IMG/VR virus record: IMGVR_UViG_2713896780_000003 | DNA length: 4,944 nucleotides | Strand: one strand, 5' to 3' | From: a virus | Taxonomy: Duplodnaviria; Heunggongvirae; Uroviricota; Caudoviricetes | Shown here: piece after piece, positions 1 through 4,940 of the stretch | Numbering within the stretch: position 1 is the stretch's first letter | How the letters are laid out: every line of letters begins with the position of its first letter | Translations under genes and position numbers: made by a program | Notes under the pieces: model-generated | What the model was told of the DNA's origin: nothing | The model's input: only the letters and a program-made list of their open reading frames with translations | Databases searched by the model: none

Positions 1-96
1 ACATACCAATAACTCTTGTCGAAAAAGCCAGCAAGTTGAAAGACCGGTATTAATAACCACCAGCGAATTTATTGCGCTGCTGTATATTACGGACAC

Positions 97-117
97 AAAA
101 AAACCACCTTCCGGTGG
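97..117 (-). terminator. Candidate rho-independent terminator downstream of the ORF6N-like gene
   Basis: On the minus strand the hairpin CCACC-GGAA-GGTGG (plus 104-117) is followed by seven T (plus 97-103 are A). The stem is only 5 bp. It lies about 100 nt after the gene stop at 217. Confidence 0.4.
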
Positions 118-216
118 CTTCCTTGTGCGAAAAAAACTTGCGTTTCGCCTCGCGATACAGCTTTGCGAAGCATACAGGAATTGAAGCAGTTTATGTGCAA
201 AAATGCAAGAACTTTT

Positions 217-845
217 TTAAAGCTGCATCAACCTTTCCACCAGTTTATCTCTGCGAACAACAAACCAACCATTGGCTCTCGCCAGTTCCAGCCATGACTC
301 AAGGGAAATAACAATATCATCATCCCGTAACTGAATTGTGGAAACAGTGACACCGCCTCTCTGATAACAGAGAACTCGCGTGTCGTAACTTTTCTGGCAT
401 GAAACTGGCGCTGACGGATCCTTTTGTCTGAAATAGCAGTCTTCCAGCTTTTCGAACACATCCCACGCCTGATCGGTTTCCAGCATTTTGGCATGACGGG
501 CTGCTCCGCGTTCTGTCCAGAGGATGAGGGAGCGGGCTTTCGGGGAAATTTGTAACCCTCTTAAAGATGGTTGCAAATTTTGTGAGTAGTTTAAAGCTAC
601 CCGCAAATTTTTCAGGGCATCGCCAGCCACTTTGAAAAAATGCTTTCCTTCAATAAAGCGCTCAGCATTTCTGGCGTAGTTATTTTGAATGTTCTTAACT
701 CCAGCACCGTACAACTGCGCCAAAAGTTCGGTGGTAATAACAGGAATCTGGTTATGGGTGATCGGGNNNNNNNNNNNNNNNNNNNNNNNNNNNNNNNNNN
801 NNNNNNNNNNNNNNNNAGAGTTTCAACAGAAATTTGAGTTGTCAT
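217..845 (-). CDS. ORF6N-domain antirepressor-like phage protein, interrupted by N-run 767-816
   Basis: ATG at 845..843 (MTTQISVET) is preceded by GAGGG about 8 nt upstream. After the N-run the open frame reads ...PITHNQIPVITTELLAQLYGAGVKNIQNNYARNAERFIEGKHFF...ILWTERGAARHAKMLETDQAWDVFEKL and stops with TAA at 219..217. The LYG...RN.ERF...LWTE.GA pattern matches my recollection of the ORF6N antirepressor-type domain. The frames either side of the N-run differ, so the true length is unknown. Confidence 0.55.
767..816. other. Masked or unknown sequence (50 N)
   Basis: Run of N characters inside the ORF6N-like gene. Confidence 0.95.
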
Positions 846-1005
846 AATGACGCCCTCTGGTGGTTTCTAAACCATCACCACCGTCAGGTTCCTAATCATC
901 GGGTGGTGAGACGTACAGGGTTAGGAACTACCGGGAAACCAACCGGCGAGCTTTTCAGCTCCCCCATACGCCCCACCATAATTCAGATGTGCGCGTGCAT
1001 ACGAC

Positions 1006-1030
1006 AATAAAAAACACGCTCGCGGCGTGT
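1006..1030 (-). terminator. tR'-like intrinsic terminator downstream of the late promoter
   Basis: Minus-strand transcript reads ACACGC-CGCGA-GCGTGT followed by TTTTTATT: a 6-bp stem (plus 1014-1019 paired with 1025-1030), 5-nt loop, U-tract from plus 1006-1013. Confidence 0.5.
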
Positions 1031-1086
1031 GTCTGTCGCGGTCTCTATCCGGGGTTCCTAATCCCGACGCCAGATTTTGCTGGCGC
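1008..1086 (-). ncRNA. Predicted short leader transcript from the pR'-like promoter to the tR'-like terminator (about 80 nt, lambda 6S-RNA-like)
   Basis: Inferred from promoter and terminator positions. It begins with hairpin CGCCAG-CAAAAT-CTGGCG (plus 1068-1085) and ends at the terminator. Start site is estimated, not observed. Confidence 0.3.
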
Positions 1087-1092
1087 GTGAGG

Positions 1093-1122
1093 AATATAGC
1101 CCCGGATAACAGATTGAGTCAA
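1093..1122 (-). promoter_or_regulatory. Sigma70 promoter, pR'-like late promoter overlapping the stop codon of the Q-like gene
   Basis: Minus strand reads TTGACT (plus 1122..1117) then 18 bp then TATATT (plus 1098..1093). The -35 overlaps the TGA stop at 1121..1119. The spacer contains CCCCGGATA. Confidence 0.5.
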
Positions 1123-1673
1123 CAGACAGTTTTTAAATACCCGGAAGAGAATGCATCACGCATCGGCAGATAGAGCATATATTCAGCAAGATTTAGCCAT
1201 ACATCTACCCGACTGCAGCACGTCCGAAAACACCACTCAGGGTGTGCATCATTTAGCAATTCAGCCATTTTGCGCTTACTCATCCCCCGCCCTTCATATC
1301 TTTGCCGGAGGATACAAATCAATCCTGGGTGTTCTGCCAGCACTTCACTAATCACCCGATCAATGCATAACGCCTCTGCATCAGTACAATGCACCAGCCA
1401 GCTTTTTTGCTTGCCGTTGATCATATCCCGCAAAAAAGCCTCAAGTTCAGGTTTGTCCAGACCTGCTTTTTTCATCCTCCGGAGCGCCTCATTAATTGCC
1501 GTTTTTGTTAGCTTTTTAGAGGTCAGCAACTGGTTAAACATATTTCCCGTCTTACCGCCGCCAATATACGACCAGCGCCCCCACATACGTAGTTTTCCCT
1601 GAATCCAGACACTTTCCAGCGTGGTGAGACGAAGGTGTTCTCCGCTTTTTCCTGTATTCGTTGGGTAAATCAT
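1119..1673 (-). CDS. Putative late-gene antiterminator, Q-like (184 aa); family assignment tentative
   Basis: ATG at 1673..1671 with AGGAGG 7 nt upstream; start overlaps the upstream stop as ATGA. The ORF track's longer version (from 1793) overlaps the upstream gene and lacks a ribosome-binding site. The call rests on position (after DUF1367/DUF1364-like nin genes, immediately before a strong promoter and short terminated leader) and on a WGRW motif near the N-terminus. Confidence 0.45.
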   Translation of the reverse strand: MIYPTNTGKSGEHLRLTTLESVWIQGKLRMWGRWSYIGGGKTGNMFNQLLTSKKLTKTAINEALRRMKKAGLDKPELEAFLRDMINGKQKSWLVHCTDAEALCIDRVISEVLAEHPGLICILRQRYEGRGMSKRKMAELLNDAHPEWCFRTCCSRVDVWLNLAEYMLYLPMRDAFSSGYLKTVC

Positions 1674-1960
1674 AAATATCCCTCCTTTCTCCAGATTTCT
1701 TGTGTGCGAAAAACACCTTCTGCATGCATCAGGCGTAATTCTTCTTTGGTGTAATCGCCGGTTTTTACCCGCCCGTCGATTAAATCGTGGCACGAGCTAC
1801 AGGCAATCGCTGCCTGCATATCGTGTGGCTTTATCGCTGTTCCGCACGTTCCCGCCAGTCGGTAATGCGCCAGCACAGACGTTTCGGGATTGTGATTGCA
1901 GTAGCCAGGGATTCTGACCTGGCACATCTGGCCCCGCGCTGCTTTACGTAAATCCACCAT
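1670..1960 (-). CDS. DUF1364 / YbcO-like small Cys-rich nin-region protein (96 aa)
   Basis: ATG at 1960..1958 with GGAG 8 nt upstream. Protein MVDLRKAARGQMCQVRIPGYCNHNPETSVLAH... with conserved Cys spacing resembles the YbcO-type prophage proteins as I recall them. Start shares a base with the upstream stop (TAATG). Confidence 0.55.
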   Translation of the reverse strand: MVDLRKAARGQMCQVRIPGYCNHNPETSVLAHYRLAGTCGTAIKPHDMQAAIACSSCHDLIDGRVKTGDYTKEELRLMHAEGVFRTQEIWRKEGYL

Positions 1961-2630: not shown

Positions 2631-2843
2631 CTAACAGGATGCTCTGACTCGCAATTCATCCAGCAGTTTATCATTTCCCATAATGTCACTTACCCTCATC
2701 GGTAAAAAAATTGCCTTTCGACCATTACGATACATCATTGATTTTGGGGTTTCAGGGAAGTAATCCATTTCGACTATAACTGACAGGTCATCACGACGTA
2801 TGACTGCGTATTTGCAACTAAATAGTTTCTTTATTTTTTCCAC
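2631..2843 (-). CDS. Hypothetical small protein (70 aa) downstream of the AT-rich island
   Basis: Internal GTG at 2843..2841 is preceded by GGAGG (plus 2852..2848). The ORF track's GTG at 2882 has no ribosome-binding site. Product MEKIKKLFSCKYAVIRRDDLSVIVEMDYFPETPKSMMYRNGRKAIFLPMRVSDIMGNDKLLDELRVRASC (first residue from GTG); no family recognised. Confidence 0.4.
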   Translation of the reverse strand: MEKIKKLFSCKYAVIRRDDLSVIVEMDYFPETPKSMMYRNGRKAIFLPMRVSDIMGNDKLLDELRVRASC

Positions 2844-3028
2844 GATGCCTCCGAGTTTATAAGTACAAACGGTTATATCCACATAGAGACAAAAATATTA
2901 ATCTGAGAAATATTTATTTCACGCTGTATATTTGATTATTTAATGTGCAGGTACAATGACTTTTATTTTTTGTTGTGTATATAATCAAATATATGGTTAT
3001 TTTTCACCCTGCGCATTCAGCACGCAAC

Positions 3029-3051: not shown

Positions 3052-3162
3052 AGTGCGGGTGCGTTGAGGATGCCTGACACATCAGAGGTGGCGGGAGATT
3101 ACTCCCNNNNNNNNNNNNNNNNNNNNNNNNNNNNNNNNNNNNNNNNNNNNNNNNNNCTTCAT
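3050..3162 (-). CDS. Small ORF with strong start signals, interior masked by N-run; 3' end uncertain
   Basis: ATG at 3162..3160 (MK...) is preceded by AAGGAG 9 nt upstream. Past the N-run one frame stays open to TAA at 3052..3050, directly abutting the terminator; the frame implied by a literal 50-nt gap stops earlier, near 3082. Confidence 0.25.
3107..3156. other. Masked or unknown sequence (50 N)
   Basis: Run of N characters inside a small minus-strand ORF. Confidence 0.95.
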
Positions 3163-3214
3163 AGCCTGCTTCTCCTTGCCTTTCGGCACGTAAGAGGCTA
3201 ACCTACGTGTGTAG

Positions 3215-3244
3215 AGCATAGATATGGCCTCAGATTAATGTTAA
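3215..3244 (-). promoter_or_regulatory. Candidate sigma70 promoter with operator-like repeats for the small ORF at 3162
   Basis: Minus strand reads TTAACA (plus 3244..3239) then 18 bp then TATGCT (plus 3220..3215). The -35 lies within one of two TAATGTTAA direct repeats (plus 3236-3244 and 3262-3270) that flank the imperfect palindrome GCGTCTTGCCGGACGC. Confidence 0.3.
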
Positions 3245-3356
3245 GCGTCTTGCCGGACGCGTAATGTTAACTGGGGCTTTTCTCTGTCTGCCTTACGGTG
3301 GCATGCCCGAGGCAGATAGCCTCAAGCACCCGCAGCAATTCTACTTAACTCTCGCT

Positions 3357-3449
3357 TTACCGCANNNNNNNNNNNNNNNNNNNNNNNNNNNNNNNNNNNN
3401 NNNNNNNNNNNNNNGCACCTTCCATTGCCAGTGAAATATCATCCGACAT
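3357..3449 (-). CDS. Small protein (about 30 aa if the gap is literal), interior masked by N-run
   Basis: ATG at 3449..3447 with AAGGAGG 4 nt upstream, reading MSDDISLAMEGA before the N-run. All three frames stop within 42 nt after the gap; the frame consistent with a 50-nt gap ends with TAA at 3359..3357. Confidence 0.35.
   Translation of the reverse strand: MSDDISLAMEGXXXXXXXXXXXXXXXXXXR
3365..3414. other. Masked or unknown sequence (50 N)
   Basis: Run of N characters inside a small minus-strand ORF. Confidence 0.95.
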
Positions 3450-4583: not shown

Positions 4584-4940
4584 TTATTCAGTTCTGGATT
4601 TTGTCACCCTGCGTATCCGCGCTTTCACGTTACGCTCAATCTGAATTAGCTTTTCTATATTTCTCCGCCTTTCCCGTTCCTCCTGGCGCAAGATCCTTAC
4701 ATCATCTGCCAGTCTGGTTTCTCTTTTCGCCACAGAGAGCATCCAGTCAAATGGCTCCACAACTGCACCGCAGATTTTACAGCGGACCTGACGCTCTTTT
4801 TCGTCAACCCGGACAGAGGCGTGATGGCAATATGGTCTTTCCGATGGCTCATAGAGAAAATTAACCTGATTACGTGGGTCATCCTCTTTTACCGGAAATA
4901 AAACGATATTGCTTAACTCATCTTCTGGTTTTATTTCCAT
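4584..4940 (-). CDS. Zn-ribbon-like protein with basic coiled-coil tail (118 aa)
   Basis: Open frame from ATG at 4940..4938, four nt from the window edge, so upstream signals cannot be checked and the true start may lie outside. Contains C-H-H then 13 residues then C-x2-C (YCHHASVRVDEKERQVRCKICG) and an Arg/Glu-rich C-terminus. Confidence 0.45.
   Translation of the reverse strand: MEIKPEDELSNIVLFPVKEDDPRNQVNFLYEPSERPYCHHASVRVDEKERQVRCKICGAVVEPFDWMLSVAKRETRLADDVRILRQEERERRRNIEKLIQIERNVKARIRRVTKSRTE

Follow-up and report, generated by a model that had tools for sequence, protein, structure and literature searches.

An ORF6N antirepressor-like gene between a DUF1133 Q gene and a candidate late promoter unit belongs to a probable RNA-gated cassette of the P1 immI/Gifsy-1 type

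The stretch of viral DNA analysed here (IMG/VR record IMGVR_UViG_2713896780_000003, Caudoviricetes), referred to as the window, comprises 4944 bases. All genes in its ORF listing are on the minus strand, and a tRNA scan of the window found none. The gene under study, an ant/anrP-like ORF6N gene (845..217, minus strand), starts with an ATG at 845 and ends with a stop codon at 219..217; a Shine-Dalgarno sequence, GAGGG at 857..853, is spaced 7 nt from the ATG. In the literal sequence, the long ORF 723..217 does not share the reading frame of the ATG at 845, and a run of 50 N occupies positions 767-816. If this run is taken as length-preserving, the gene appears as a frameshifted pseudogene. This reading was ruled out by comparison with complete E. 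coli genomes with 100% identity on either flank, in which the gap measures 3 nt; the run is a fixed-length placeholder, and the remaining two N-runs of the window correspond to 162 and 113 bases in complete genomes. Since the masked bases amount to 3 nt, the true gene is intact, with a length of 582 nt and a product of 193 aa that is identical to E. coli WP_000211416.1 ('ORF6N domain-containing protein'). Exactly this sequence of 193 aa is found on at least 1000 contigs, together with many close variants.

The original prediction had described an antirepressor-like ORF6N gene with its own ribosome-binding site, located just downstream of a Q-like gene and coding for about 70 C-terminal residues without recognisable relatives, and these points were all confirmed. 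A profile search gave Pfam ORF6N (PF10543) at residues 12-105 with 68.3-69.1 bits, as compared to a cut-off of 27.8, and the C-terminal ~70 residues matched no curated family. The ORF6N domain has the features of a winged-helix fold (KilA-N/Bro-N/APSES-like), with a core at residues ~12-125. The structure of the 193-aa protein was predicted with AlphaFold2 from a more diverse alignment (mean pLDDT 79.5). The model consists of an N-terminal domain (~12-125, pLDDT mostly 82-93), a disordered linker (residues 127-136) and a C-terminal module (138-192, pLDDT 81-88) made of a beta-hairpin followed by two helices.

The two parts of the protein have very different distributions. The first ~125 residues have relatives across the representative library that was searched (2048 clusters at E <=0.001), whereas matches extending to residue ~190 come from only about a dozen 50%-identity clusters of the same library. 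Within the aligned ORF6N family, the core LILWTERGAARHAKM.E..QAW.VFE.LEDCYF is almost invariant. The C-terminal module is hypervariable and retains only the pattern G[WY].V..[RK]..L...L in the family alignments; the E. coli module and the Salmonella AnrP-type module share about 25% identity, and Stx-phage relatives carry the P22 antirepressor C-terminal domain PF10548 (P22_AR_C) in place of the 55-residue module. No fold match was found for the C-terminal ~55 residues, and a search of a large protein database with just the C-terminal 78 residues gave no hits other than fragments of this protein. In the IMG/VR sample, the type of C-terminus tracks the neighbourhood of the gene: the window type is found after DUF1133 or 933W-type Q genes, the AnrP type after Gifsy-type Q genes, and the P22_AR_C type after ninE. 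It is a reasonable inference from these alignments that the module may act as a specificity module. Its hypervariability was a by-product of the analysis.

The Q-like antiterminator gene (1673..1119, minus strand) was recognised by a Pfam DUF1133 match of 354 bits, with a weak Phage_antitermQ match in addition; DUF1133 has been assigned as a Q antiterminator by HHpred in 13 Stx phages (PMC8136144). Its TGA stop codon (1121..1119) overlaps the -35 element of a promoter, TTGACT-18 nt-TATATT (1122..1093), which is a homologue of the Gifsy-1 PisrK promoter and the sole promoter-like match on the minus strand within 1..1800. The promoter is followed on the same strand by an IsrK-type sRNA gene (1086..1009; Rfam isrK, 69.4 bits vs. 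a gathering score of 50), overlapped by a c4-a1b1 motif holding the a1 and b1 targets of C4 (1099..1046; 47.8 bits vs. 46.7). An intrinsic terminator was predicted at the isrK hairpin (1030..1014). Further downstream lie a C4-type antisense RNA (983..899; a full-length Rfam C4 match of 67 bits vs. 45) and the ant leader with the sites b2 and a2 (898..846), which was recognised by its complementarity to C4 b' and a' and by three-way covariation. No sigma-70-like promoter was predicted on the minus strand at 846..1005. Thus, the original statement that the 160 bp between terminator and start contain no promoter stood, while the interval did not prove to be empty, as it is occupied by the C4 RNA and its target sites.

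Cassettes with the same RNA elements are present in VT2-Sakai, Gifsy-1, a Yersinia phage and Stx phages. When seven of them (the window, VT2-Sakai, Gifsy-1, one Yersinia phage and three Stx phages) were compared, a -35 element TTGAC[ATG] was found upstream of isrK in all seven and the -10 element TATATT in six. Inside C4 of the window there is also a non-conserved 27-codon ORF, a remnant of the Gifsy-1 'orf45', which stops 53 nt before the ant ATG. An AUGA overlap of the orf45 type with the ant start occurs in two of the seven cassettes, those of Gifsy-1 and the Yersinia phage.

The closest studied relative is the isrK-orf45-anrP region of Gifsy-1, which has the order Q (STM2617), a1b1/isrK, C4, STM2616 (AnrP), isrJ, tRNA and lysis genes. 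This order is common to the window, including a C4-like RNA (the STnc1160/orf45 region) and a short-RNA unit before the late genes. The window protein and AnrP (STM2616) share 54% identity over their full length (E 3e-67), and their first 27 residues are identical. Several parts differ. The two Q proteins are unrelated (PF06323 in Gifsy-1 vs. DUF1133 in the window), and the downstream short-RNA unit is isrJ in Gifsy-1 and something other than isrJ in the window. The RNA specificity differs as well, with a b sequence of UUAGGAAC in the window and UUGGCGU in Gifsy-1, and an a2 sequence of GAAACCA as compared to AUCACCG. Finally, the orf45 stop overlaps the anrP start in Gifsy-1 (AUGA), while the window ORF has no such overlap. 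Taken together, the ORF6N cassette is the E. coli counterpart of the already studied Salmonella Gifsy-1 system, a P1 immI variant.

In Gifsy-1, the isrK promoter transcribes anrP by partial terminator readthrough without induction (PMC4825925, Hershko-Shalev et al. 2016). The anrP mRNA is translationally silent, and IsrK supplied in trans increased its translation 140-fold; AnrP in turn raised antQ/Q-operon mRNA and induced the Gifsy-1 prophage (PMC4825925). The compensatory mutant pairs G28A/C162U and G31A/C159U (PMC4825925) map to b1 and b' when positions are counted, as was done here, along the extracted Gifsy-1 sequence. The authors explained the action of IsrK by alternative structures and translational coupling through orf45, and observed that the nucleotide sequence is conserved and the orf45 peptide is not (PMC4825925). 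Since the window ORF has 27 codons and its stop is 53 nt before the ATG, coupling of the orf45 type cannot work alike here.

The recognition sites of the window, all on the minus strand, could be assigned on both sides of C4. The C4 RNA exposes an a' sequence, UGGUUUC, in its hairpin loop (941..935) and carries a b' segment, GUUCCUAA (928..921). Upstream, a b1 decoy with the sequence UUAGGAAC lies in the loop of isrK hairpin 2 (1061..1054), and an a1 decoy, GAGACC, lies in the linker that follows this hairpin (1045..1040). Downstream, the b2 target (895..888), located just past C4, repeats the b1 sequence, and the a2 target, GAAACCA (867..861), ends 4 nt before the Shine-Dalgarno sequence and 15 nt before the ATG. 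C4 b' is the exact complement of both b1 and b2, and a' is exactly complementary to a2, whereas a' forms only 6 bp with a1, one of which is a G.U pair.

The IMG/VR collection was scanned with the C4 pattern, which gave 112 parsed cassettes. These contain 38 distinct (a',b') combinations, built from 28 a' and 10 b' variants, and the specificity type of the window accounts for 9 of the 112. The cognate b1, b2, a1 and a2 sites were found at fixed distances in nearly all parsed cassettes. When pairing energies were computed with RNAduplex, no clean cognate diagonal was obtained and G+C-rich stems dominated; for this reason, pairing was measured as the longest exact complement in fixed windows, comparing cognate with non-cognate combinations. 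The values were 6.9 nt vs. 3.5 nt for b1, 7.05 nt vs. 3.2 nt for b2, 6.6 nt vs. 3.9 nt for a1 and 7.9 nt vs. 4.2 nt for a2, in each case cognate vs. non-cognate, and the cognate median was reached by merely 0-1.3% of the non-cognate pairs. The C4 loops therefore vary jointly with the decoy and target sites across the 38 specificity types. On comparative grounds, this speaks strongly for functional C4 pairings and for a two-site specificity code in this family of cassettes. Another candidate target of a', suggested by the name of the motif, was the loop of isrK hairpin 1 (GCAAAAUC); it was discarded, since it is nearly invariant and unchanged when a' changes. The a1 site that co-varies is in the linker after hairpin 2, not in hairpin 1. 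The size of this RNA code emerged as a by-product.

This arrangement can be set beside the immI region of P1 and P7. Citron and Schuster (1990/1992) reportedly described that, in these phages, C4 a' and b' pair with sites both upstream (a1/b1) and downstream (a2/b2), that the downstream sites guard the antirepressor operon, and that changes in the sites result in different immunity specificities. The window shares with immI a C4 RNA that is co-transcribed with its own target, as indicated by the Rfam C4 and c4-a1b1 matches. The downstream target a2 lies at the ribosome-binding site of ant, where pairing would block the ribosome, and compensatory matches to a' and b', exact over 7-8 nt in the window, are present on both sides of C4. 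The two systems differ in that immI has the order c4 antisense RNA, icd, ant1/ant2, while the window has no icd-like coupled ORF, and in the window a2 adjoins the Shine-Dalgarno sequence of ant itself. Moreover, the upstream sites of the window are freed on an sRNA of their own, the terminated IsrK, its antirepressor belongs to the ORF6N proteins, and the host element is a lambdoid prophage, whereas P1 is a plasmid prophage.

The Ant proteins of Stx phages (VT2-Sakai/933W group) are further relatives to be compared. The promoter-IsrK-C4 leader is shared, with about 86% DNA identity over window positions 428..1109, and the N-terminal 125 residues of the ORF6N protein are 79% identical. However, the Stx-phage gene precedes Q, in the part of the nin region flanked by ninE and roi, while the window gene follows Q; its product combines ORF6N with P22_AR_C (PF10548), where the window protein has the 55-residue module; and its b specificity is UUGGCGU, as compared to UUAGGAAC in the window.

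Downstream of the ORF6N gene, a candidate late promoter/qut/terminator unit for the DUF1133 Q was found at 208..97 (minus strand), and it is conserved in cassette-free relatives. The candidate promoter consists of a -35 element TTGCAT (208..203) and an extended -10 element, TG (188..187)-c-TTCAAT (185..180), with a predicted start at ~173; the -10 hexamer is weak, and the extended TG is needed. A candidate terminator, GCCACC-GGAA-GGTGG-T7, lies at 118..97, so that the predicted short RNA of this unit is 77 nt long. When the window was aligned with five cassette-free junctions, the TTG of the -35 element and the extended -10 were invariant and separated by a 17-nt spacer. The same alignment showed about 35 invariant transcribed bases, to ~144, with the terminator some 25 nt beyond; the position, hairpin and T-run of this terminator are kept, and its sequence differs between lineages.

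The position of this block relative to Q was examined in genomes with and without the cassette. A search with the 216 bases beyond the ORF6N gene gave matches in 2508 E. coli genomes, and in several of these the block abuts a DUF1133 gene, the ORF6N gene being absent from the junction. The late block comes right after the DUF1133 stop codon in five prophages that lack the cassette, including an Stx2d phage; the order in the STEC434 Stx2d prophage is DUF1133 Q, late block, 65-aa ORF, methylase, tRNAs and stx2d. Similar arrangements were found with other Q genes. In phages of Klebsiella, Enterobacter and E. coli that lack the cassette, DNA homologous to isrJ immediately adjoins the 3' end of Q, and in one of these Klebsiella phages it is followed by a tRNA and lysis genes, while in Gifsy-1 the cassette sits between Q and isrJ. 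In those IMG/VR cassettes whose preceding Q is of the 933W type, ant is immediately followed by the ~70 nt with which the post-Q region of Sakai begins, which represent the 933W-type pR' start. The order Q, then cassette, then cognate pR' is thus seen with three unrelated Q families; this recurrent insertion between Q and pR' was a by-product of the analysis.

By its conservation and position, 208..97 is the candidate for the true Q-linked late promoter, qut site and tR' of this phage. StxS of Stx2 phages is a short pR'-tR' RNA (PMC7547250), and the 208..97 unit fits the description of lambdoid pR'-tR' RNAs such as lambda 6S and StxS. The isrK unit resembles them in that a constitutive promoter close behind Q gives a short terminated RNA, but it differs in being linked to no Q family and in carrying the C4 decoy sites. 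Since the late block is downstream of the ORF6N gene, the gene is inserted between Q and pR', outside the late operon; on this sequence arrangement, it is not late-operon cargo.

The original prediction had taken the promoter at 1122..1093 and the terminator at 1030..1014 as a Q-dependent pR'/tR' module, with the ORF6N gene as the first late cargo gene in the slot between tR' and the lysis genes. A promoter right after Q, a short RNA and a strong terminator do have the classic pR'-6S-tR' look, and there is no further promoter ahead of the ORF6N gene. However, the promoter-isrK-C4-ant cassette is located in the nin region of VT2-Sakai, in the ninE-roi interval about 2 kb upstream of Q, and after unrelated Q genes elsewhere, as in Gifsy-1; its promoter is therefore matched to no particular Q. 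What travels with the DUF1133 Q is a block of dissimilar sequence on the other side of the ORF6N gene, and no similarity was found when the cassette promoter/isrK region was compared with 208..97. The recurrence of the order Q, cassette, cognate pR' in three Q families also argues against this reading, as does the Gifsy-1 promoter, which transcribes anrP without induction and leaves the control to translation (PMC4825925). The same report describes overproduced Gifsy-1 AntQ as interfering globally with termination (PMC4825925), so that Q might secondarily increase readthrough at the isrK terminator. We consider it very unlikely that the module is a Q-dependent pR'/tR'; it corresponds to the isrK promoter and terminator of a mobile cassette of the P1-immI/Gifsy-1 type, and the gene lies between Q and the Q-linked late block, not between tR' and the lysis genes. 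The late, Q-dependent expression that had been predicted is likewise not supported. Judged by Gifsy-1, where control is translational and AnrP raises Q mRNA, the order would be the reverse: expression of the ORF6N gene is probably not Q-dependent, and the antirepressor would act before Q, not after it.

The reading that we prefer, and hold to be quite probable, is that window positions ~1122..217 form a self-contained, RNA-gated antirepressor cassette of the P1 immI/Gifsy-1 type, placed between Q and the pR' unit at 208..97. According to this model, the constitutive promoter (1122..1093) would make mostly a 77-nt IsrK ending at the terminator (1030..1014), and readthrough transcripts would carry C4, the leader and the ORF6N coding region. 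The a' loop and b' segment of C4, presumably after processing, would pair with a2 and b2 in the ant leader. Pairing at a2, 4 nt before the Shine-Dalgarno sequence, should block ribosome loading, which would keep the antirepressor off in the lysogen. The b1 and a1 sites of IsrK would serve as a decoy for C4, so that an excess of IsrK would allow ant to be translated. The ORF6N protein would then inactivate the non-cleavable HTH repressor of the prophage (GfoR/RacR type), and loss of repression would lead to early transcription, to Q and, from the downstream pR' unit, to late genes. The sequences analysed here show the anatomy, the homologies, the complementarity with its covariation and the geometry of the insertion. 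For promoter activity, terminator readthrough, activation of translation by IsrK through b1:b', and the rise of Q mRNA and prophage induction caused by AnrP, the model follows what was demonstrated for the Gifsy-1 orthologue; for the window locus we infer that C4 directly occludes the ribosome-binding site of ant, that C4 is processed, and which repressor the protein targets.

The proposed target agrees with what is found in the genome that best matches the window. Its prophage has a Rac-like immunity region and a repressor of 139 aa, which consists of an HTH domain only, without an S24 peptidase domain, and has a C-terminal motif in common with the Gifsy-1 repressor; both repressors are of the non-cleavable HTH type. 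Repressors of this kind, RacR and DicA among them, stay uncleaved during induction and are inactivated by antirepressors (PMC3121763). No LexA box was seen by eye in window positions 2883..3000. A non-cleavable repressor fits an antirepressor role of the ORF6N protein, which would act by binding it. The originally proposed cross-induction of co-resident prophages by this protein is plausible.

An alternative is that the cassette is gated by RNA in the same way, and its protein, a winged-helix regulator, binds DNA itself and either activates the early or Q operon directly or competes at its operators. Against this stands the annotation of the family as antirepressors, together with the Stx-phage relatives in which the same N-terminal domain is fused to PF10548. 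[quoted passage not shown] For these reasons we regard direct action on DNA as unlikely.

It may also be asked whether the cassette has any current function, given that the best-matching prophage has several IS3 insertions and a disrupted lysozyme gene and that the Gifsy-1 coupling ORF is shortened in the window. A decaying remnant in a defective prophage is, however, extremely unlikely in view of the intact reading frame and the abundance of the identical protein and its close variants. In addition, all RNA elements scored above threshold, a' and b' are still complementary to all four sites, with a single G.U as the only deviation, and the specificity type of the window recurs nine times among the parsed cassettes.

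If the RNA-gated antirepressor cassette is accepted, a further reading can be proposed tentatively, which we find possible and rather doubtful: a 'private key' switch. Such a switch would have two layers, both evolving fast: the combinatorial RNA code, with 28 or more a' and 10 or more b' variants, would pick the IsrK/C4-ant pairing, and the C-terminal module would pick the repressor. The placement between Q and pR' would itself be functional. For example, the isrK terminator may insulate pR' from early transcription, or readthrough from the Q gene may feed ant and lock in induction. Alternatively, the Q-pR' junction may merely be a recombination hotspot.

Parts of window positions 1..1700 match in 2863 of 5426 complete E. 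coli genomes, and 117 genomes cover at least 80% of these positions; the cassette or close relatives of it are widespread in E. coli prophages, and relatives occur in Stx phages. A promoter and a short terminated RNA right after a Q gene, tempting as that reading is, are not necessarily pR'/tR'. If the cassette works as in Gifsy-1, it would provide an SOS-independent, RNA-controlled route of prophage induction, and this would, in Stx phages, have a bearing on toxin production and on the cross-talk between co-resident prophages. The two-site C4 code could be used to predict which prophages share immunity at that layer.

The cassette made up of a promoter, the IsrK sRNA, the C4 antisense RNA and the ant gene was found exactly between the stop codon of the Q antiterminator gene and the cognate pR' block. 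This Q-cassette-pR' order was observed with three unrelated families of Q (DUF1133, as in the window, Gifsy-type PF06323 and 933W-type), in loci L001, L004, L070, L082, L129, L132 and others that show the different placements of the cassette. In Sakai-like Stx phages, the same cassette is also present downstream of ninE.

On the other side of the ant gene, the minus strand of the window contains a candidate late promoter, Q-utilisation and terminator unit of the DUF1133 Q (positions 97..208), from which an RNA of 77 nt is predicted. The Rfam scan of this unit gave no match to any family, and the unit could encode an uncharacterised sRNA similar to IsrJ or to StxS, the short RNA of Stx2 phages. 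Among complete E. coli genomes, at least 686 cover 80% or more of window positions 1..216. The Salmonella sRNA IsrJ occupies the position expected of the pR' short transcript; IsrJ-type loci were recorded at L004 33406..33480 and L019 1501..1589. In Klebsiella, Enterobacter and E. coli phages that do not carry the cassette, the IsrJ homologues immediately adjoin the 3' end of the Q gene and are followed by a tRNA and lysis genes. IsrJ is probably the tR'-terminated transcript of the Gifsy-1 late promoter.

The comparison with genomes that are 100% identical showed that the three N-runs of the window are fixed 50-N placeholders that do not preserve length: the true lengths are 3 bases for 767-816, 162 bases for 3107-3156 and 113 bases for 3365-3414. 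These gaps probably originated in the source assembly. The ORF6N protein of database record P0050 has 182 aa and is labelled 'partial'. Some homologues, such as P0069 and P0089 (203 aa), contain a 10-residue tandem duplication, NLRVxLxxSQ, in the low-confidence loop of the ORF6N domain, where the window protein has its residues ~62-85.

The 162-nt gap conceals most of a Hok/Gef gene belonging to a hok/sok toxin-antitoxin module on the minus strand (3157..3331 plus the gap 3107-3156), as indicated by the Rfam match to sok RNA (112.6 bits) and by the Hok/Gef protein annotated at the corresponding place in a matching genome. Two further minus-strand ORFs were considered. The first (2631..2882, 83 aa) had no Pfam match and is preceded by an AT-rich intergenic stretch of ~120 bp (2883..3000), in which no LexA box was seen by eye; together they may represent a small moron transcribed from a promoter of its own. 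The second (4584..4940, 118 aa) weakly matches a TFIIB-type zinc ribbon, with 21.6 bits against a Pfam cut-off of 29.

In phage phiON-2011 and, as a second copy, in Stx2_716, the RNA adjoining the ant-like genes scores in Rfam as sRNA-Xcc1 (76-80 bits) rather than as C4; such RNAs beside ant-like genes are found at L007 570..653 and L013 1209..1292, and may be a related antisense switch under a different family name. For 48 of the 108 C4 cassettes with sufficient flank in IMG/VR loci L020-L139, the next gene is of a type other than ORF6N, and therefore the RNA switch combines with other effector genes.
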